Source: an uncultured Gemmatimonadota bacterium (lineage in GTDB: Bacteria > SM23-81 > DAOVCL01). From it: a stretch of 64,000 nucleotides of DNA. The notes beneath the pieces were generated by a model. It was not told the DNA's origin. It saw nothing but the letters and a program-made list of their open reading frames with translations, and searched no databases. Of this stretch, positions 10,735-64,000 are shown piece after piece. Within the stretch, counting starts at the first letter, position 1. Each line of letters begins with the position of its first letter. The stretch lies in contig CAZVGK010000007.1 in NCBI GenBank assembly GCA_964626665.1, positions 24,505 through 88,504 on the forward strand, given 5' to 3'. A program made the position numbers and the translations under genes.

Positions 10735-11700
10735 TTGCCGCGCATAAGAATAGGTGTAATTGGGGTTGGCCACTTAGGCAAGTATCATCTCCAGAGGCTT
10801 TTAGAGCTTCCCCTAGCCCAGGTGGTGGGCCTCTTTGATAAAGACCAGGCAAAGGGGGAAAGGGTAGCCAAAAGTCTGGGGGTGAGGGCCTGGCCCCACC
10901 TAAGTGACCTCCTCAAGGAGGCAGAGGCCGTAGTGGTTGCTGTCCCCACCAGCTCCCATTACGAGGTAGTTATAGAGGCCCTCTCTCAGGGGCTGGCGGT
11001 CCTGGTGGAGAAACCCCTTGCCGGTAGATTGGATGAGGGGGTGGAGATGGTGAAGATGGCCCAAAGCAAGGGGAAGGTCCTTCAGGTAGGACATATAGAG
11101 AGGTTCAACCCCGCCTTTACCTCGCTTAGGGGGTTGAAAATTGAGCCCCGGTTTATAGAGGCCCATAGGCTCTCCCCCTTCCACCCGCGGGGAATGGATG
11201 TGGCTGTGGTCTTGGACCTGATGATCCACGACCTGGACCTTGTCCTTGCCCTGGTCAACTCCCCTCTACAGTCCGTGGAGGCTATGGGGGTGGCTGTGGT
11301 CTCTGATCAGGAGGACATCACCAACGCCCGCCTTAGCTTTGAAAACGGCTGTGTGGCCAATCTCACGGCCAGCAGGATATCGGCCAAATCGATGCGCAAG
11401 CTGCGCATTTTCCAGAGGGATTCCTATCTCTCCCTCGATTTTATCCAGAAGAACACAGAGGTATACAGGCTTCTCCCCTCCTCAGGAGGGGTCAATGGCG
11501 AAAAGATATTTGACCTTGCTGGCCGGTACCTTATCCGCAAACTAATAACCGACAAGGGGGTTGATCCCCTCAAGGAGGAGCTCTCCTCATTCCTCTCGGC
11601 AATAGCAGGCCACCATCCTCCCCCTGTCTCTGGCCAGGAAGGGCTAAAGGCCCTAAGGTTGGCCCTGAGGGTGTTAGAGGCCATAAGATGCAGAACTTAG
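10735..11700 (+). CDS. Gfo/Idh/MocA-family NAD-dependent oxidoreductase (possible GnnA-like UDP-GlcNAc 3-dehydrogenase, by lipid A context)
   Basis: N-terminal Rossmann motif IGVIGVGHLGKYH. It lies immediately upstream of lpxB. Confidence 0.75.
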   Translation: MPRIRIGVIGVGHLGKYHLQRLLELPLAQVVGLFDKDQAKGERVAKSLGVRAWPHLSDLLKEAEAVVVAVPTSSHYEVVIEALSQGLAVLVEKPLAGRLDEGVEMVKMAQSKGKVLQVGHIERFNPAFTSLRGLKIEPRFIEAHRLSPFHPRGMDVAVVLDLMIHDLDLVLALVNSPLQSVEAMGVAVVSDQEDITNARLSFENGCVANLTASRISAKSMRKLRIFQRDSYLSLDFIQKNTEVYRLLPSSGGVNGEKIFDLAGRYLIRKLITDKGVDPLKEELSSFLSAIAGHHPPPVSGQEGLKALRLALRVLEAIRCRT

Positions 11701-11756
11701 CTCGCTTCGCTCGCAAAGTTCTCCATAGGGTCTCACGACCCTTCCCGACCTACAGT

Positions 11757-11815
11757 CGGGACTCGGATTGCCCATCTGTCACCCTTGAAGGGGGCTTACC
11801 CCCTTCAAACAACCC
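11757..11815. repeat. repeat containing hairpin gaagggggtaagcccccttc, shared with 57566-57620 and 19826-19858
   Basis: gtttgaagggggta(a/t)gcccccttcaagggtgacag..gcaatccgag occurs in both places. The spurious N-terminal extension of the lpxB ORF covers it. Confidence 0.6.
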
Positions 11816-11858
11816 CCAACCTATCGGAATTTCCAAGAAATCCCGATGGGTCAAGTTA

Positions 11859-56236: not shown

Positions 56237-57071
56237 GATGAGGGAAGAACGGACAAAGCTCCTCCTGACCTGGCTGGGGTTATCCTTTATGGTTATCTTC
56301 TGCCTCACCCCCTTTTTCTTTATGATAATGGTCTCTCTGAGCAAAGACCCCACATTCCTATCCTTGCAGAAGGTTAAATATCTCCTCACCCTAAGGAACT
56401 ATATTCACATCCTGAGAGCGGGATCGCTTCACTTCCCCGCCTACTTGAGAAATAGCCTGATCATCTCCGCCCTGGTGGCAATCTTTGCCACATTTGTGGC
56501 CGGGCTGGCTGCCTATGCTTTTTCCAGGTATCGTTTTCCGGGAAGGGTTCTCATCCCCCTGGGAGTCTTGGGAATCTCTATGTTCCCCCAGATAAGCGTA
56601 GTGGGCTATCTTTTCAAGATAATGACGGGATTGGGCTGGATAAATACCTATAATGCCTTGATTTTCCCTTATATAGCCTGGGCCTTACCCCTTGCCCTCT
56701 GGATAGTCCTGAGCTATTTTATGCAGATCCCCCAGGAGCTGGACAGGGCCGCCTTGGTGGATGGGGCGTCCCGATTTCAAACCCTCTATAAGATAATCTT
56801 CCCCTTGGCATTACCAGGGCTCTTCTCCACCGCATTGTTGGTCTTTATCTTCTCCTTCAATGAGTTTCTCTTTGCCCTGATGCTTACCACAGACCAGGCG
56901 GCCAGGACCATTCCGGTGGGGATTGCCCTCTTCCAAGGCCTCCATGGAGAGATACCCTGGGGGCATATTATGGCGGCTTCCACAATTTCCTCCATCCCTC
57001 TGGTTCTGCTTACCGTTGGCTTTCAGCGCTATATCATTCAGGATTTAACCAAAGGGGCATTGAAGGGATAA
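56237..57071 (+). CDS. sugar ABC transporter permease (MalG/ThuG-like)
   Basis: ATG at 56237 directly after the TGA of the previous permease. Six transmembrane segments. Confidence 0.75.
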
Positions 57072-57074
57072 CCC

Positions 57075-57700
57075 CGGATTAGGCAACAAGGAACCACGAG
57101 ATAATGTGCTGTCAGGAGTTACCTCCTGACAGCCCTTGAGACCTCTGGTTGTGCTGGTAGGGCTCTGCCCTGACGGAAATGGTTCTACCGCACTTTAGTG
57201 CGGATTATTATGGAGTGCGTCAACCCTGTTGACGTGGGCTGTGACAGGAGTCACAGCACTCCAAATAGACTATCCGTCCGAGCCGTCAGAACCCTTGTTC
57301 TGACGACAAAGGAGAAGGTGGGAGAAAAGGGAAATAAGTTGGTAATTTGGAAAGTCAAGACTAAAGATGTGACCCCATATTTCACCATATTTCTCCACCT
57401 TATTTGCCCAAATGACCCACATTGTAGGGGTTTGATTCATCAAACCCGCTGCGGTGAACGAGGGGTTTGGAGTGAATCCCGAATTATCGGAATTCCACTT
57501 GACTTTTAATTGAATTTGTGGTAATTTTACGTTTCGGAATTTCTAAGAAATTCAAAAACGTAGGGGGATGTTTGAAGGGGGTATGCCCCCTTCAAGGGTG
57601 ACAGCGGAGCAATCCGAGCTGGCGTAGGATTGCGGAGCGCCATAGGGCCGGTGAGGCCCTCTGGAGAAGTTAGCGACCGTAAGGGAGCTAAGTTCTGGAT
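57075..57700. repeat. intergenic repeat cluster (gtgctgtcaggagttacctcctgacagc 57106-57134; gtagggctctgccct; 20-mer 57184-57203; gtcaacagggttgacg..gtcacag; 115-bp repeat 57283-57395, shared with 61021-61130; gaagggggtatgcccccttc 57581-57600; ttagcgaccgtaagg 57655-57680)
   Basis: Direct matches. ORF 57198-57509 is considered spurious. Confidence 0.8.
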
Positions 57701-57710
57701 AAGGAGGTGA

Positions 57711-57965
57711 TTGAAGATGAAAACTCAAACCCTGATGCAACAGCTTGAAGGTTTTGAAAAGGATATGGATTGGTTAAACAGTAGGTATGAGGAGCTGAAG
57801 AGTAAATATCCGGATGAGTTCGTGGCAGTTTTAAGAGAAAACATTGTAGATCATGATAGAGATTTGAGCAAGCTGATGGGCAGATTAGAAACCAGATTTC
57901 CCGAGGATTTCCCAAGAATTGCGATAAAGTTTGTGAGCACAAAGAGAGTTGAGTTGATCCTATGA
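57711..57965 (+). CDS. small protein, DUF5678-like, partner of the downstream aspartic protease
   Basis: 84 aa. Its ATGA overlaps the next gene. Lower G+C. Confidence 0.5.
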   Translation: MKMKTQTLMQQLEGFEKDMDWLNSRYEELKSKYPDEFVAVLRENIVDHDRDLSKLMGRLETRFPEDFPRIAIKFVSTKRVELIL

Positions 57966-58420
57966 AAATCAAAGGGAGCTGGGGTGAGTTTGATGCCCCT
58001 TACCTGAGGGGAGCGTTTATTTGTCACAAACTGAATCTTATGAGATATATCGATCTCTTGATTGACACAGGCGCAAGCAGCACAACTATTTTAGATAATG
58101 ACGCGCTAAGATTGGGTATAGATTATAACAAGATAGAAAAGTTGGCAGAAGGAACAATGGGAATAGGTGGGTCTGTTGACACTTATGTTATACCAGATGT
58201 AATGATAGCATTCAGAACTATGGAAGGGATCCACAGAGAGAAATTTGGTAATGTATTTGTTGTCAGACACATGCCCAGAAACAGAGAAGAGGAAGAAAGA
58301 ATAAAAAGAATACCATCACTTTTGGGCAGGGATTTTCTCAATAAGTACAGCTTATTTTTGAATAGGAAGGATAAGATCGTCACAATTAGTGATAAATCGG
58401 GGGCAGCTCTCAGAAAATAG
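57962..58420 (+). CDS. retropepsin-like (clan AA) aspartic protease
   Basis: LIDTGASSTTI active-site motif. 152 aa. Confidence 0.65.
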   Translation: MKIKGSWGEFDAPYLRGAFICHKLNLMRYIDLLIDTGASSTTILDNDALRLGIDYNKIEKLAEGTMGIGGSVDTYVIPDVMIAFRTMEGIHREKFGNVFVVRHMPRNREEEERIKRIPSLLGRDFLNKYSLFLNRKDKIVTISDKSGAALRK

Positions 58421-58440
58421 ATATTGGTATCTTTCTGAAG

Positions 58441-58700
58441 GTTACTTACTTATGGCAAAACCTCTGCGCATTGAGTTGGCCTGGAGCGCTGTATCACCTC
58501 ACAGACCGAGGGAACGGGCGGTAGGTGATCTTTCGCTATGAGCGTGATCGGCGACATCACATGCTTGCGTATGTCAGGGGACCAAGCTCATGTATCTGGC
58601 TCAGAGGTAGAATGGGAGATCAATGTGCCAATTGGCAAGGAGCTTAGGAGGAATAGATTCTGTGTTCTGGTGTTCTGGGGACACCATACTTGTTTTTTAA
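58441..58700 (+). pseudogene. decayed N-terminal remnant of a COG1943 IS200-like / RAYT-type Y1 (HUH) transposase
   Basis: Frame 1 gives MAKPLRIEL. The +1 frame continues PGALYHLTDRGNGR, then TAG. This matches the conserved (R)PLRIE.PGA.YHVT.RGN.R N-terminus of this family. Downstream, ..HHMLAYV..P...IWL looks like a degraded HuH (HAYVLMPNHVHLL) region. Confidence 0.5.
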
Positions 58701-58779
58701 CATAAGCGTAGAGTGAGAACACGGTCAGCTCTTGATATTTGACCAATACTTCTATAGGCTTGTTTAAGACTTAGAATTG

Positions 58780-59045
58780 ATCAGGAAAGGAGGAATCACC
58801 ATAAAATTGTAAAAACCTTTTTTCCCAATTTTCTCCATACTATTTCGTTATTTTCTCAAGCTCATCGGTCGTCCCTTCAACAAATCGCATATCTGTTGCT
58901 CGGACCTTTAAAATCTTCATACCTATCATCCGTCTAAACGCTTACCTTCCCTCTGAGGAATGCCCTCGGCGCAATCGGTTTAATCCTCTTCTTTCTACTT
59001 GTACTCAAGCAAACGGTCGCTTATATTTTACTCATAGGAAGATAT
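58780..59045. repeat. ~260-bp direct repeat, copy 1 (copy 2 at 60095-60545); the pair flank a toxin-antitoxin pair
   Basis: ataaaattgtaaaaacctttttcccaattttctccatactatttcg...caatcggtttaatcctcttctttct...cgcttatatt is shared with copy 2 at roughly 85-90% identity by eye. Confidence 0.7.
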
Positions 59046-59433
59046 GTCCCCAAGGGTTTTCGATCTTCCTCCTGTATTCGTTGACCAACTTTTGCCTGCC
59101 TAAATAGAGGAGAGAGAATCTATGCAGGATGGTTAATATGCGGGGTCATCGGCGAGGTTAACCCCAAAAGTTCCTTGACCGTGGGCTCCTGAAAGAGTAT
59201 ATTGGTATGTAGTTGGGAGAAAGATGGTGATAAGCAAATGCAAATGGATAATGAGGTGGCAGAAGAGAGCTTCTGCCACCTCAAACAGAATTTTTCCGCT
59301 GTTATCCAGTCAAGAGCGGGGTGTTATACGGAAACCATATGAGCCGTAGTTCGGTAAAAAATATACAACTTGCACACTGGCAGCCAAAAAATAAATTCGA
59401 GTATATGTGCTGCCCCACTATAAGGAGGTAAAA

Positions 59434-59658
59434 ATGAATCCAAACGATATTTCCGTATTCGACCTAAGTCCACCGGAGAAGTTACAGTTGGTGGAAGACC
59501 TCTGGGATGATCTCGCGGCTACGCCTTCAGAGGTTCCTGTGCATGAATGGCAAAAAGAAGAGTTGGCTCGCCGAAAAGCTAACTTGATGAGCAAGCCGGG
59601 TTCGGGGCTTTCGTGGGACGAAGTCAAACGCAGGATTCGAACTCGCTATGGCCGTTGA
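59434..59658 (+). CDS. antitoxin, putative addiction-module component (TIGR02574-like)
   Basis: GGAGG RBS + ATG at 59434. LSPPEKLQLVEDLWDDL motif. Confidence 0.65.
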   Translation: MNPNDISVFDLSPPEKLQLVEDLWDDLAATPSEVPVHEWQKEELARRKANLMSKPGSGLSWDEVKRRIRTRYGR

Positions 59659-59884
59659 ACTAATAATCGCGCAGGAAGCACAACAGGACGTCGATGAGGC
59701 ATATAGCTGGTATGAAGATCGTAGACCTGGCTTGGGGGAAGAGTTTCTTACCTGTGTGGACGCGTGTATTCAGGCGATCTGTCGTGTGCCCGAACTGTAT
59801 GCCAAAGTCCACGAGAAGATAATCGTCTACAGCATCTTTCATACATCCCGGGATTCAAAAAAGTGGAGGGATCGCTTGGTTTGA
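59648..59884 (+). CDS. ParE/RelE-family toxin, possibly carrying an internal deletion
   Basis: Overlaps the antitoxin by 11 nt. ParE-like N-terminus and a C-terminal ..IFHTSRD. About 12-15 residues expected before the final strand appear to be missing. Confidence 0.5.
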   Translation: MAVELIIAQEAQQDVDEAYSWYEDRRPGLGEEFLTCVDACIQAICRVPELYAKVHEKIIVYSIFHTSRDSKKWRDRLV

Positions 59885-59974
59885 CTTGCCAATCTTCGCC
59901 GAACCTGTCAGTCCACCTGACTGGTGTTCCGCTACGCCTCACACCGGCAGGTGACTTTATTGTTAGCAACTATA

Positions 59975-60010
59975 AAAAGGGGGAGTAAGTGAGCTCCTCC
60001 CTTTTTTGTT
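59975..60010 (+). terminator. rho-independent terminator (aagggggag..ctcctccctt + TTTTTTG)
   Basis: Stem-loop followed by a T-run directly after the toxin gene. Confidence 0.5.
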
Positions 60011-60094
60011 GGCTCCCCGGGTCAGTGGGGTCTGCCCTTGACATTGGATAAACACTTGCATAGACTTGTTTAAACTTACAAGTAATCAGAGAGG

Positions 60095-60545
60095 GGAAAG
60101 CCCCCCATAAAATTATAAGAACCTGTTTTCCCAATTTTCTCCACACTATTTCGTGTCTGTCCGGAAATACCCATATTTCTTGTCATTCCGGCGATCTTTA
60201 AGCCGGTATCTACTTAAAATCAGTAATGGATTCCCGCTAACGGTAGGCGGGAATGACAAATTGGGACAGACGATATTTCCTTATTTTCTCAGGTTTATCG
60301 GTTGTCCCTTCAACAAATTGCATATCTGTTACCAAGTATCCATTGTTTGAACCTTTAAAACCTTCATGCCCATCATCCGTTCTAAAGGCCCTCATCCCCT
60401 CTGACGTATGCCCTCTCCACTTTGATTAAACCCAATTCTTTGGGCTTTTTGGTGTGCTCAGAGTATGTCCTCAACGCAATCGGTTTAATCCTCTTCTTTC
60501 TGCTTGTGCTCAGATAAGCCGCCGCTTATATTCTACTCATTAGTG
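60095..60545. repeat. ~260-bp direct repeat, copy 2, interrupted by a ~125-bp hairpin insertion (60160-60285) with GTCTGTCCGG-type terminal inverted repeats
   Basis: Aligns with 58780-59045 on both sides of the insertion. The insertion has tgtctgtccgg...ccggcg / cgggaatgacaaattgggacagacg inverted ends, related to the element at 35822-35975. Confidence 0.65.
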
Positions 60546-60579
60546 AAATACGGCTTAAGTTCCCCCCTCAAATCTGCCG

Positions 60580-61700
60580 ATATTATATTTAAAGCCACCA
60601 ATGATTGAGCGGTCACATGCCCTCATCTGACCGTTATCGGCCAACCATTAAGTGCTCTTACTTGACGGCACGGGGGATGGTGGCAGAATCGGGGTTCTGC
60701 CACCTCGTCTTTGGGATCTTTACTACAATCTTGCAAGATCTTGTTTTTTGGGCAAAGTTACTTGGGTGGGTTTGAGTAAGGGCGCAAGGCCTTGCGCCCC
60801 TACGAAACCATATCCGTGCTGGTTCTAACGAGCCGTGAGAACCCCGATTCTGACGGCAAAGATGGAAGGGGGCGGTTTCTACCGCACTTTAGTGCGGGCC
60901 TTCAGTCAATGGCAAAATCCCAATATCAAATGATGAAAGAACTGTCAAGTCGCTCCGCTCTTCGCAATGACCCATCCTTTGCCCATCATTGCGAGCAAAG
61001 CGAAGCAAGCTTTCTCCCCACCGTCAGAATCCCTGTTCTGAAGGCAAAGAAGAAGGTGGGAGAAAAGGGAAATAAGTTGGTAATTGGAAAAGTCAAGACC
61101 AAAGATGTGACCCCATATTTCCGGAGGTTGTGGTTACGGTCTCCCACAAAACTTCCTTTAATGTCCCTCTCCCTCTAACTCCCCACCCCTGGTAGCCGCA
61201 GACTTCAGTCTGCCTATCTGTCAACCTACGAGGTTGTGACTACCCTCCCACCAGGGGAGGGAGGATTTGTGCTGTCAGGGCAGGAGTCCTGACAGCACCA
61301 AAAAGTAAGCAGGGGTCGCTTTTATGCGACCCAAATCCTGCGGGCTTGATAAATCAAGCCCCTACAAGCAGGTCAATTGCCCTCAGATCAGGAGATACAA
61401 CAGCTCAGTTAAAGAGACCACGGATAACCACGGAAAAGGAAGGCAGAAAACCGTCAGCGTAGAAGCCCTGACAGCACAAAAGGGGGGGAATTGCCGTCAG
61501 ATGAGGGAATCTGACGGCTCGCTACCATTCGGAGTTTAAAATTGATGGATTGCTTCCACCATGCTCCTTGTGGATGTTATCACCCACAAGGAGGTGTTCT
61601 TGGTTTATTATAGGAGCTGTAGATGATAACATCCACAGCGAGCTCAAGGAGGTTTCCTTCATTTTTAATTCTACATTTTTAATTCTACATTCGAAGCTTC
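60580..61700. repeat. 1.1-kb non-coding repeat mosaic (three-hairpin composite 60606-60706; caagatcttg element 60713-60745; 20-mer 60877-60898; 115-bp repeat 61021-61130; gtgctgtcagggcaggagtcctgacagcac 61269-61298; gggtcgcttttatgcgaccc; gccgtcagatgagggaatctgacggc 61493-61518; ttgtggatgttatcacccacaa 61566-61594; ttaattctacatt motif 61665-61702)
   Basis: Direct matches to other intergenic regions. ORFs 60792-61178 and 61324-61539 are considered spurious. Confidence 0.8.
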
Positions 61701-61715
61701 GATAGATTGTTATCC

Positions 61716-64000
61716 TCAAACAAATCTTCCGCAACAGTTCTTATACTTCTTCCCCGATCCGCAAGGGCAGGGATCGTTCCTCCCTATCTTCTTCTTGACC
61801 CTTAGCGGGGCTGGCTTGCCAGTAGGGGGAGTATGAGGAGTTGGGGTTGAGGAGACAACCCCTTGGGCCTGGGAATGCAGCTCCCTCATCTCCTCCGGCT
61901 GCAGGATGGGGGCGATCAATGGCCTTATCTGGGCCTTAAATATGACCTCTAACACCTCCTGATTTATCTGATCAAGAAGGCCCAGGAACATATCGAAGGC
62001 CTCTCTTTTGTATTCCACCAAAGGGTCCTTCTGCCCATAGGCTCTCAGTCCTATCCCTTCCTTCAACTGGTCGAGCTCGTAGAGGTGTTCCTTCCACCGC
62101 TCATCGATCACTTGCAGGGTAGCCAGTCTCTCCAGCTCCCTCAGTTGTTCCTCGCCCAACTCTGCCTCCCTACTCTTGTAGGTGGCCAACACCGCATTCT
62201 TTACCAACTCCTTTAACCCTAAATCCTTCCCCTTCTTCCTCTCCACCTCACCAAACTCCACCTCCACCAAGAAGAGCCTCCGCAGCTCCTCATTTAACCC
62301 CTCCAAATCCCACTCCTCTGGATAGAGCTTGGGATCCACATAGGAGGAGATCTTGTTCTCTATCCACTCGGCTATCATCTCCACTATATCCTGGCGGAGA
62401 TTCTCCCCCTCCAGGGCATGGAGCCTACGATCGTAGATCACCTCCCTTTGACGGTTCATTACATCGTCATACTCCAAGAGGTGTTTCCTGATGGAGAAGT
62501 TCTGGGCCTCTACCCTCTTCTGGGCCCTCTGGATAGCTCTGGTGACCATAGGGTGTCTGATCACCTCCCCCTCCTTCACCCCCAACTTATCCATCACCGC
62601 GGCTATCCTCTCCGAGCCGAAGAGCCTCATCAGGTCGTCATCTAAGGAGAGGTAGAAGCGGGAGGAGCCGGGATCTCCTTGCCGGCCACTTCTTCCCCGG
62701 AGCTGACGGTCGATGCGGCGGGCCTCATGCCGCTCGGTGCCGATGATGCGCAGGCCACAGGGGACATCCTCCTCACATCTGAGCTCATCGTAATAAGGAC
62801 AGACCTCCCCCTCTTCTGGAAGGGCAACAACCCGACAACCCGGGTGCTTGACCACCCCTGGCCCCAGCTTTATATCCGTTCCCCTACCGGCCATATTGGT
62901 GGCGATAGTCACTGCCCCCTTCTGGCCGGCCAGGGCCACTATCTCTGCCTCCCTCTGATGGTGCTTAGCATTGAGCACCGCATGGGGTATCCCCTGGTGG
63001 CGGAGCATGCGGGAAAGGGTCTCAGAGACATCTACGGAGACGGTCCCCACAAGCACGGGGTGCCCCTTCTGGTGGAGCCTGGCCACCTCCTTGATGATGG
63101 CATTATATTTCTCCCTCTTTGTGCGAAAGATCACATCATCATAGTCAATGCGGCGCACAGGCTCGTTGGTGGGGATAACTGCCACATCGAGCTTGTAGAT
63201 CTCCCAGAACTCGTTTGCCTCTGTCTCCGCTGTGCCGGTCATCCCAGCCAGCTTATCATAGAGCCGGAAGTAGTTCTGCAGGGTGATAGTAGCCAGGGTC
63301 TGGGTCTCCCTCTCGATCCTTACCCCCTCCTTGGCCTCCAGGGCCTGATGGAGACCATCCGAATATCTCCTTCCCGGGAGGAGGCGGCCGGTGAATTCAT
63401 CAACTATCATCACCTTACCATCCTGAACCACATAATCCACATCCTTTTCAAAGAGGGAATGGGCCTTAAGCAGTTGGTTGATGTTGTGGATCTTCTCGCT
63501 GCGCTCCGCATACTCCCTGTAGACCTTGTCCTTTAACCGCGACTTGTCCGTCGGGGAGAGGGAATCATCTGAATCGATGCGGTGGATCTCCACGCTCAAA
63601 TCAGGCAGGACGAAGAGTTCCCTCTGCTGAGGGGTCAAAAGCTGGATGCCCTGTTCCATCAGGTTGATGCTGTTCTCCCTTTCGTCGATGCTGTAGTAAA
63701 GCTGCTCATCGATCTCCCCCATCCGCTTATCCCGCAGATAGTCGTTCTCCACCTTCCCGATGAGTTTCTTTACCCCTTGCTCCTTCAAAAGCTTCATTAG
63801 CCTCTTGTTCTTGGGGGCCCCCCTGCTGGCAGTGAGAATTTCAATCCCAGCTTCATAATCCTTCCCCTCCTTAAGGAGCTCCTCTCCCTCGGCCACCAGC
63901 CGGTTAACCAGCACGGTCTGCTTCCTCACCATTCCCTTCACCTGGGGATGTAGCTCATCATACCGGTGGGTGGAGACCGAGACCGGGCCGGAGATGATCA
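61716..64000 (-). CDS. secA: preprotein translocase ATPase SecA, C-terminal ~760 aa (N-terminus beyond the window edge)
   Basis: SecA motifs throughout. C-terminal zinc finger ..CPCGSGKKYKNCCG. The ORF is open to the window edge. Confidence 0.9.
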   Translation of the reverse strand, partial: IISGPVSVSTHRYDELHPQVKGMVRKQTVLVNRLVAEGEELLKEGKDYEAGIEILTASRGAPKNKRLMKLLKEQGVKKLIGKVENDYLRDKRMGEIDEQLYYSIDERENSINLMEQGIQLLTPQQRELFVLPDLSVEIHRIDSDDSLSPTDKSRLKDKVYREYAERSEKIHNINQLLKAHSLFEKDVDYVVQDGKVMIVDEFTGRLLPGRRYSDGLHQALEAKEGVRIERETQTLATITLQNYFRLYDKLAGMTGTAETEANEFWEIYKLDVAVIPTNEPVRRIDYDDVIFRTKREKYNAIIKEVARLHQKGHPVLVGTVSVDVSETLSRMLRHQGIPHAVLNAKHHQREAEIVALAGQKGAVTIATNMAGRGTDIKLGPGVVKHPGCRVVALPEEGEVCPYYDELRCEEDVPCGLRIIGTERHEARRIDRQLRGRSGRQGDPGSSRFYLSLDDDLMRLFGSERIAAVMDKLGVKEGEVIRHPMVTRAIQRAQKRVEAQNFSIRKHLLEYDDVMNRQREVIYDRRLHALEGENLRQDIVEMIAEWIENKISSYVDPKLYPEEWDLEGLNEELRRLFLVEVEFGEVERKKGKDLGLKELVKNAVLATYKSREAELGEEQLRELERLATLQVIDERWKEHLYELDQLKEGIGLRAYGQKDPLVEYKREAFDMFLGLLDQINQEVLEVIFKAQIRPLIAPILQPEEMRELHSQAQGVVSSTPTPHTPPTGKPAPLRVKKKIGRNDPCPCGSGKKYKNCCGRFV

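Follow-up and report, generated by a model that had tools for sequence, protein, structure and literature searches.

Background

The 'TIRYT' genes have been described as residing in 'TIRtrons', in which terminal inverted repeats (TIRs) that share the sequence GGGGWSAS are placed at a constant distance (Di Nocera et al. 2013, BMC Genomics 14:522, PMC3733652). Solo or derivative TIRtron ends are also reported there from some genomes. A later phylogenomic study treats the TIRYT genes as subclass 2.1 of TnpA-Y1, a group of long proteins that end in a Bac_DnaA_C or other HTH domain (HTH_23- or HTH_28-like), with the TIR consensus GGGG[AT][CG]A[CG] (Quentin et al. 2018, BMC Genomics 19:475, PMC6006769). 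According to that study, neither automatic nor manual searches gave REP-like sequences for subclass 2.1, and the TIRYT/TIRtron concept is still in need of confirmation. In the TIRYT literature cited here, no experimental demonstration of TIRYT transposition or of TIR mobilisation is reported.

The canonical REP-associated tyrosine transposases (RAYTs) and their REPtrons, exemplified by E. coli TnpA-REP (YafM) and the Pseudomonas RAYTs (Nunvar et al. 2010, PMC2817692; Bertels & Rainey 2011, PMC3116915), are shorter, and their genes lie between hairpin REPs with a GT[AG]G tag, a type of sequence present in many copies across the genome.

The present locus lies in a 64-kb stretch of DNA, hereafter the window, in which an initial annotation had recognised the relic of a Y1 transposase gene and had suggested that a RAYT once disseminated the palindromes found around it. 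We consider it very probable that a TIRtron is seen here of which only the left end persists, in decayed form: its TIR, its leader and the first ~40-45 codons, in which one nucleotide is inserted and one codon has become a stop. The stub is an ordinary pseudogene, a dead member of a described transposase class.

Results

A degenerate Y1 transposase gene

The coding part of the relic opens with an ATG (58452-58454, + strand) and reads MAKPLRIEL, of which MAKPLRIE represents codons 1-8 of the transposase. The similarity then continues in the +1 frame as (S)WPGALYHLTDRGNGR*, and VIFRYERDRRHHMLAYV is read beyond the stop codon without a change of frame; that segment is also given as VIFRYERDRRHHM. 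DNA alignments to two related genes, L019 and L008 (see below), trace the frameshift to a single extra T (GAG-T-TGG, 58476/58477), the corresponding site being GAGTGG in L019 and GAATGG in L008, and show that the stop codon, a TAG at 58522-58524, corresponds to CAG in the relatives. Because both lesions are visible in these alignments, the joining of two frames into one N-terminus of a Y1 transposase, as made in the initial annotation, is correct. With both lesions corrected the peptide reads MAKPLRIEWPGALYHLTDRGNGRQVIFRYERDRRHHM... The coordinates of the relic and of the neighbouring features are collected in Table 1.

Table 1. Positions of the relic, its probable left TIR and nearby repeats within the window
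Feature	Position	Strand	Evidence
Probable left TIR, GGGGGCAGCTCTCAGAAAATAGATATT	58399..58425	+	Position, consensus, end of protease homology, likeness to L050
Conserved 5' leader and ribosome-binding region, TCTTTCTGAAGGTTACTTACTT	58432..58451	+	DNA homology starts here
Transposase codons 1-8 (MAKPLRIE)	58452..58475	+	Translation, profile, DNA alignment
Frameshift lesion, extra T	58476..58477	+	Alignments to L019 and L008
Codons 9 to ~41, shifted frame, WPGALYHLTDRGNGR*VIFRYERDRRHHMLAYV	58477..58575	+	hmmsearch, tblastn, sliding identity
DNA in place of the rest of the gene	58586..58714	.	Similarity comparisons
Repeat copy A, ~320 nt, non-coding	58715..59037	+	Self-BLAST, alignment to copy B
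Repeat copy B, same element as copy A with three nested insertions	60020..60545	+	Alignment, nhmmer
Repeat D1	57310..57383 (or 57283-57383); 61045-61121 (or 61021-61121); 394-426	-; -; +	Self-comparison

A Y1 profile of 156 positions was built from 120 independent PF01797 proteins, collected with the L008 protein, and was run on six-frame translations of the entire window, divided into 3198 pieces. Its sole match is at 58474-58563 (E = 9.3e-9; next best E = 3.6), and the same single match in the window is obtained with a full-length profile of 337 positions made from 62 complete proteins. With the frame corrected, the peptide matches positions 1-37 of the Y1 profile with 51.8 bits, and tblastn recovers the relic over residues 7-40 (E = 5e-10). 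At the DNA level the relic is 86.6%, 85.6% and 79.4% identical to L019, L008 and L017, respectively, from 58432/34/48 to 58554/58. The alignment to L019 spans 127 nt (58432-58558) and includes 20 nt of the leader; at the amino acid level the identity to L008 is 77%.

Searches of the generic libraries with the 41-64-aa relic peptide gave zero matches in Pfam, NCBIfam and PDB, and a word-indexed protein search gave no candidate, since the peptide is too short for them. Against plasmids, tblastn of the peptide yielded weak matches only (E = 4e-3 to 1e-2), all to genes annotated 'transposase' that encode PF01797 Y1_Tnp proteins. The profile search that had been proposed as a check for Y1 similarity therefore divides: the generic profiles are silent, while the subfamily profile and tblastn both recover the relic. 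By sequence similarity, that is by the subfamily profile and by nucleotide identity to L019, whose product scores 53.8 bits on the generic PF01797 model, the relic belongs to the Y1 superfamily (PF01797/COG1943), and its identification as the remains of a dead HUH Y1 transposase gene is upheld.

Only the beginning of the gene has survived. Similarity at the protein level ends at residue 37-41 (58563-58575), and the DNA identity to the intact gene, 16-19 per 20 positions in a sliding comparison, drops to background by ~58585, beyond which the local alignment score is 20 vs a shuffle mean of 19.4. The DNA that follows up to copy A shows no similarity to the transposase, to any repeat of the window or to any of the fetched loci, and contains one further GGGGACAC motif at 58682. 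On the profile the HUH motif lies at positions ~58-62 and the catalytic Tyr at ~118, and the similarity of the relic stops before both. Profiles and tblastn found no HUH motif, catalytic Tyr or C-terminal domain in the 64-kb window or in 4.4 kb beyond it, indicating a pseudogene fragment and not a functional member of the family. The surviving part amounts to ~12% of the gene (~40-45 of ~335 codons), so that membership of the class rests on the relatives and not on catalytic motifs or a right end of the relic itself.

A faint echo of the HuH motif that had been suspected downstream (HHMLAYV..P...IWL) proved to be noise, as DRRHHMLAYV is colinear with residues 32-41 (DRQYLLQCFE) of the intact protein and not with the HUH at 58-62. 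Profiles detected no second copy of the transposase in the 64 kb and the adjoining 4.4 kb. A minus-strand tblastn match at 58945-59127 (residues 44-101) was rejected as a composition artefact: it reaches 25.8 bits without composition correction, a score attained by 0/100 shuffles, and falls to 13.1 bits (E = 9) with composition-based statistics and to -1.1 bits on the profile. Repeat copy B has no counterpart of this match.

The gene neighbouring the relic is carried by 14 contigs. In five of these, which come from different samples and were built with different assemblers, the stretch 58421-59410 is the same at every position (100% identity). The relic is therefore not an artefact of assembly. 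All of the contigs with the relic come from one near-clonal population (99.8-100% identity).

Relatives and their terminal inverted repeats

A peptide-pattern scan of the genome collection produced nine loci, the best of which is L008 from a Candidatus Zixiibacteriota MAG; to judge from such DNA matches, the lineage of the window is probably akin to Zixiibacteriota. A scan of metagenomes produced 80 loci, with the best match in L019 (contig Ga0315552_1011142), which is from the same salt-marsh project as the window. The gene in L019 is uninterrupted, and its product passes the NCBIfam model NF047646 'REP-associated tyrosine transposase' (89.6 bits; cutoff 80) and fails the IS200 model NF033573 (18.4 bits; cutoff 55). 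Other relatives behave similarly, with 91.4 bits (P0002) and 79.4 bits (P0001, just under the cutoff) on the former model and 18.4-26.6 bits on the latter; the relic stub itself has no match to NF047646. On these scores the family is RAYT-like rather than IS200-like, which supports the RAYT-type alternative of the initial annotation.

The complete ORFs of the relatives encode 319-345 aa, mostly 331-340. An N-terminal Y1_Tnp domain (Pfam) was found in all three full-length relatives tested, and Bac_DnaA_C in two of them (34.6 bits, above the cutoff of 31.5, and 19.3 bits, below it), the third having a weak Xre-like HTH match instead. The region of the catalytic Tyr reads RYIHLNPV and not Y-x3-Q. 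As judged from the full-length profile, the C-terminal HTH domain is deleted in the relic, and for that part a TIRYT ancestry is presumed.

The flanks of the homologous genes show a striking regularity. Among 48 homologous loci with both flanks, 33 share a word of at least 12 nt between the two sides, in inverted orientation in 30 of the 33, and the shared word is mostly a motif of the GGGGTCAG/GGGGTCTG type. Mismatched flank pairs also share such words (34/240), because the motif recurs between loci. Variants of the motif are GGGGTCAGCCCTT..., GGGGTCTGATCTTCACATTTGA and GGGGTCAGAGCTTAATT, and the TIRs of the intact TIRYT relatives are also written as GGGGKCAGCTCT-type. Across 80 homologous loci the left motif is found at -45 to -86 of the ATG, mostly at -54 to -65. 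The right motif is its reverse complement and lies mostly at +5 to +16 after the stop codon, giving a left-right spacing of 1.06-1.11 kb. In some cases the motif is doubled beside the gene. GTAG-tagged hairpins are absent as flanks of the homologous loci. This survey (33 of 48 metagenomic loci) represents independent support for the TIRYT/TIRtron concept. The parent of the relic accordingly belongs very probably to the TIR-associated class (TIRYT/TIRtron, TnpA-Y1 subclass 2.1), in place of the canonical RAYTs from which it had been thought to derive.

The left end and the protease cassette

At -53 of its ATG the relic has a candidate left TIR, GGGGGCAG, which agrees with GGGGWSAS at 7/8 positions and has G in place of W; the left-end motif at this distance is GGGGGCAGCTCT. 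It resembles GGGGGTCAGCCCTTAAAATAGAA of L050 as well as the equally placed sequence of L019 and L008. An nhmmer TIR profile built only from TIRs of other metagenomes does not detect the 58399 copy at E < 10, and we hence call the left TIR probable, not proven. Inverted-repeat searches for a right TIR, whether of the relic or of repeat copies A and B, returned only chance-level pairs.

Upstream of the relic lies a pair of genes, DUF5678 and a clan-AA aspartic protease, which forms a conserved two-gene cassette in many contexts. The DNA homology of this cassette to its relatives ends at 58368-58396, just before the TIR motif. Relatives of the protease terminate in ...ISDEDG*, and the protein of the window in ...ISDKS-GAALRK*, being 4-6 aa longer; its last six codons and stop are supplied by the TIR (GGG GCA GCT CTC AGA AAA TAG = GAALRK*). 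The end of the cassette homology, together with these additional codons, argues that a TIRtron left terminus was joined to the 3' end of the protease gene. In the searched collections no sister lineage carries an intact transposase gene at the same locus, and identical proteins come from the same population only. Beyond these, the identity of protease homologues does not exceed 67%, and the nearest of them lie in unrelated contexts without a TIRYT in the vicinity.

Repeats tipped by TIR-like motifs, and hairpin arrays

Several repeats around the relic begin with sequences of TIRYT type. Repeat copy A, for instance, starts with (CAC)GGTCAGCTCTTGATATTTGAC, which resembles the TIRYT left TIR in the same orientation as that of the relic, and gives the second best match of the TIR profile in the window (58723-58743, E = 0.017), 140 nt 3' of the stub. 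The best match in the window falls on copy B (60027-60050, E = 5e-4), whose start, GGGGTCTGCCCTTGACATT, is identical in 18/19 bases to the left TIR of the TIRYT genes in L057 and L086. The copies of repeat D1 begin exactly at ATGGGGTCACATCTTTAGTCTTGAC, a perfect GGGGWSAS motif. Their nhmmer E-values of 2.6 and 7.7 are individually not significant, and a link of D1 to TIRYT ends, suggested by the motif, is tentative. From their sequences, copies A and B and repeat D1 may be solo or derivative TIRtron ends. Since two families begin with TIRYT-type motifs, some of the local repeats, not including the GTAG palindromes, may descend from TIRtron ends; the number of copies, two to three on a single contig, makes this no more than a lead.

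Other aspects of the surroundings were described correctly from the outset. The relic does lie in an islet of lower G+C (0.38-0.47 vs 0.50-0.55), a TA-like pair is present ~850 nt downstream (Unstab_antitox, E = 6e-18, and a weak ParE-like match), and palindromes are dense on either side, with some hairpins tagged exactly by TGTAG/CTACA. Two intergenic regions (57072-57710 and 60540-61715) consist of short hairpins of different kinds arranged in arrays. In the window the 19-mer CCGCACTAAAGTGCGGTAG, which ends in GTAG, occurs in 9 copies vs 0 expected, and the arrangement TGTAG-GG...CC or GG...CC-CTAC(A/G) is present in exact form in five hairpins. Rfam returned nothing for any repeat in 57000-61800.

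These palindromes seem to be unconnected with the relic. The nearest copies of the 19-mer are ~1.25 kb upstream and 2.4 kb downstream of it, and its own flanks are without GTAG-tagged palindromes. The palindrome families of the window occur in none of ~90 homologous loci. The absence of GT[AG]G-tagged REP hairpins at the flanks of the gene, a trait of TIRYTs, is thus shared by the relic and the ~90 homologous loci. Inverted REP hairpin flanks of the REPtron kind were not found, the relatives having GGGGWSAS TIRs and the repeats being counted within one contig. The view that a RAYT whose relic is seen here spread the GTAG/CTAC palindromes is not supported by this evidence.

A different connection between hairpins and TIRYT genes was observed in L008, where the orthologous TIRYT gene is split by a 167-nt element, with CAGTGC on one side of it and TTCGAAG on the other. 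The element is 93% identical to positions 57530-57696 of the window, with another copy at 11688-11846 (-), and combines five different hairpins in one mosaic (-81.5 kcal/mol, z = -7.3); it has no match in the plasmid collection. L019 represents the empty site for this insertion. The duplication at the filled/empty pair is at most 1 nt, the signature expected of a single-strand 'peel-and-paste' insertion. In this related genome the causality is reversed: comparison of the two sites shows that the hairpin mosaic inserted into the TIRYT ortholog and killed it. The truncation point of the relic was considered as the same site, being within ~20 nt of the L008 insertion, but the similarity in the window fades gradually past that site and the coincidence is not established.

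Discussion

The TIRtron from which the relic is thought to derive would be a unit of ~1.1 kb with one HUH/Y1 TIRYT gene between inverted GGGGWSAS-type repeats, and its left end abuts the very 3' end of the DUF5678/aspartic-protease cassette. The rest of the gene was presumably lost by deletion and/or by the insertion of other small repeats; the DNA 3' of the stub is a patchwork of repeat copies. The stub probably makes no functional protein. Intact TIRYT enzymes presumably act as RAYTs and IS200/IS605 TnpA do, cleaving single-stranded DNA and resealing it at the ends that they recognise. The ends so recognised would be the GGGGWSAS TIRs rather than the hairpins with a GTAG tag that crowd this region.

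The relic might alternatively stem from a canonical RAYT whose enzyme spread the GTAG/CTAC palindromes and the BIME-like arrays. Such an origin would agree with the score of an intact relative on the NCBIfam RAYT model, with the GTAG-tagged hairpins and the 9-copy 19-mer of the window, and with the location of the relic between two palindrome arrays. However, the relatives are flanked by GGGGWSAS TIRs and not by GTAG hairpins, and the palindromes of the window are missing both from the flanks of the relic and from all of the ~90 homologous loci. Moreover, searches reported in the literature (PMC6006769) gave no REPs for subclass 2.1, and in L008 a hairpin mosaic disrupts the orthologous gene. 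We therefore regard a canonical RAYT as a highly improbable parent. A fragment of an IS200/IS605 insertion sequence, with subterminal hairpins and possibly tnpB, would account for the Pfam description of Y1_Tnp as 'Transposase IS200 like' and for a fragmentary copy, which is typical of insertion sequences. With scores of 18-27 bits where the IS200 model demands 55, proteins of 331-340 aa with a C-terminal HTH instead of ~130-150 aa, RYIHLNPV at the Tyr instead of Y-x3-Q and no other copy in 64 kb + 4.4 kb, this derivation appears exceedingly improbable.

Chance resemblance in non-coding DNA, or a chimera of the assembly, would fit the empty searches of Pfam, NCBIfam and PDB. The probability of either is close to negligible in view of the E-value of 9e-9 in the window-wide profile scan, the match of 127 nt of DNA, leader included, to an intact gene at 86.6% identity, and the occurrence of the same sequence in five independent assemblies. 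It could also be supposed that the stub has been retained for a function, with the TIR and leader serving as terminator or 3' end of the protease operon, or with a promoter or small ORF acting downstream. The protease ORF now ends inside the TIR and the stub is fixed in all sampled contigs, as would be expected from such a role, but a frameshift and a premature stop speak for neutral decay, and the contigs are all from one near-clonal population (99.8-100% identity). We judge retention for function to be extremely unlikely. The decayed left end of a TIRtron thus remains the reading that we adopt.

Hence, the palindrome arrays of this genome are not to be credited to the gene described here, and if a RAYT did make them, the gene responsible must be another one, of canonical type, at some other place in the genome. 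The stub by itself matters little. More interesting are the mobile five-hairpin mosaic and the TIR-tipped repeats, and the filled and empty sites of the 167-nt mosaic provide a concrete example of a composite hairpin array that inserts as a unit. A wider proposition, by which the surroundings of the stub may bear witness to unusual repeat dynamics, would combine two claims, namely that the 167-nt mosaic (57528-57697) is one mobile unit and that at least two of the non-coding repeat families, having TIRYT-type GGGGWSAS termini exactly at their start, are miniature elements mobilised by TIRYT enzymes; taken jointly these seem to us rather doubtful. If both were to hold, the region would be a natural case of BIME-like arrays and TIR-tipped elements mobilised in trans, and of a hairpin array that killed a tyrosine transposase gene.

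Comparison with known systems

IS200/IS605 TnpA proteins such as those of IS608 and ISDra2 share with the family of the relic the Y1 HUH catalytic domain, which presumably acts on single-stranded DNA. They differ from it in being ~130-155 aa long, in having Y-x3-Q and subterminal hairpins, not TIRs, and in being multi-copy and often paired with tnpB; moreover, the relatives of the relic fail the NCBIfam IS200 model. The canonical RAYTs are more similar. They belong to the same HUH Y1 fold family, the intact relatives pass the NCBIfam RAYT model, and in both groups the gene is usually single-copy with inverted copies of a short cognate sequence on its flanks. The family of the relic is set apart from them by TIRs without the GT[AG]G tag and by the extra C-terminal HTH.

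The closest known system is that of TIRYT/TIRtron, and especially subclass 2.1.2 with its Bac_DnaA_C-like C-terminus (PMC3733652, PMC6006769). Common to both are the N-terminal Y1/HUH domain homologous to RAYTs and, in the relatives of the relic, the length of 331-340 aa with a C-terminal DnaA_C-like HTH and the location of the gene between inverted GGGGWSAS repeats at a fixed distance from the coding sequence. In both, copies of the TIR are sometimes doubled by the gene or form small repeat families. In contrast to the described TIRYT genes, what the relic retains is confined to ~40-45 codons, preceded by the leader and the left TIR, and its coding part is broken by a frameshift and a stop codon. 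The left TIR, GGGGGCAG, departs from the consensus at one position.

The element and its neighbourhood

An element of 167-170 nt, made up of five different hairpins in succession, looks like an entire BIME-like array that is mobile as a single unit. Folded as RNA it reaches -81.5 kcal/mol (z -7.3), and a second copy is present within the window at 77-78% identity. It also lies, at 93% identity, inside the TIRYT (TIR-associated tyrosine transposase) gene of a Candidatus Zixiibacteriota MAG (L008). The TIRYT gene of a salt-marsh contig (L019), 96% identical to that of L008, carries the empty site CAGTGC/TTCGAAG, and the insertion in L008 therefore duplicated at most 1 nt. Searches of Rfam and of plasmids gave no match to the mosaic.

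The window copies of the repeat families and gene pairs, together with the related loci elsewhere, are listed in the table.

Locations of repeats, gene pairs and related features
Feature	Location	Details
Five-hairpin mosaic	window 57528-57697 (+); window 11688-11846 (-); L008 3118-3284	
Composite block, two occurrences	window 57183-57383; 60877-61121	
Non-coding repeat, ~320 nt, copies A and B	window 58715-59037; 60020-60545	
GTAG-tagged hairpins, dispersed	window 595-61361	e.g. 736-757, 767-788, 57428-57447, 60780-60799, 61342-61361
DUF5678 and clan-AA aspartic protease, overlapping two-gene cassette	window 57711-58420	PF18929 (E 1e-6); DTGA motif
Addiction-module antitoxin overlapping ParE-like ORF	window 59407-59884	PF09720/TIGR02574 (E about 1e-18)
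Short ORFs in MAKPLRIE frame	L009, L010-L016; L017 5001-5420	
IS-like fragment	L019 3360-3880	ORF ending ...KQLSLFD*

Two composite blocks in direct order stand one on each side of a 3.5-kb islet of lower G+C, which contains two small gene pairs and the TIRYT stub. Each consists of the 21-nt TTCTACCGCACTTTAGTGCGG, a GTCAGAAC hairpin and the small repeat D1, in that order; between the blocks TTCTACCGCACTTTAGTGCGG is 100% identical and D1 92% identical, and the arrangement may mark the edge of an island or have arisen by local duplication. Among the genes enclosed, the DUF5678/protease cassette is conserved and recurs across metagenomes in many unrelated contexts, and its protease weakly matches PDC-M08B, a candidate defence component of PADLOC (E 2e-6). 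In the window, probable transposon-end sequence takes the place of the natural C-terminus and stop of this protease. The ParE-like ORF overlapped by the antitoxin gene (78 aa; E 0.0025, below cutoff) appears short, and its C-terminal end may be missing.

Both copies of the ~320-nt repeat start with a TIRYT-type terminal motif. Three insertions, of 57, 14 and 127 nt, are nested in copy B. The 127-nt one (about 60155-60265) has inverted ends of 31 nt, and L016 4264-4343, from a Nitrospirae MAG, matches it at 75%.

Possible truncated TIRYT genes in other genomes

In most of the loci that the MAKPLRIE pattern retrieved from the genome collection, the ORF in that frame is short (26-118 aa), suggesting that the TIRYT gene there is truncated or interrupted. 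The protein of L017 (P0001) ends at 139 aa, directly after the tyrosine helix. N-terminal TIRYT stubs may therefore be common in MAGs, an impression that is biased by the N-terminus-anchored search pattern. Relative to L008, an IS-like fragment is inserted in L019 ~80 nt upstream of the intact TIRYT gene, a further sign of heavy mobile-element traffic near this gene.

Likeness to REP sequences

The dispersed hairpins of the window have stems of 8-9 bp that differ among members and a loop of 4 nt, and every one is tagged exactly, with 5' TGTAG or 3' CTAC(A/G). The 19-mer CCGCACTAAAGTGCGGTAG occurs 9 times in the window, against 0 expected. A canonical RAYT cognate to such sequences, if any, is absent from the window; the tagged hairpins and CCGCACTAAAGTGCGGTAG are candidate REPs of the GTAG type.
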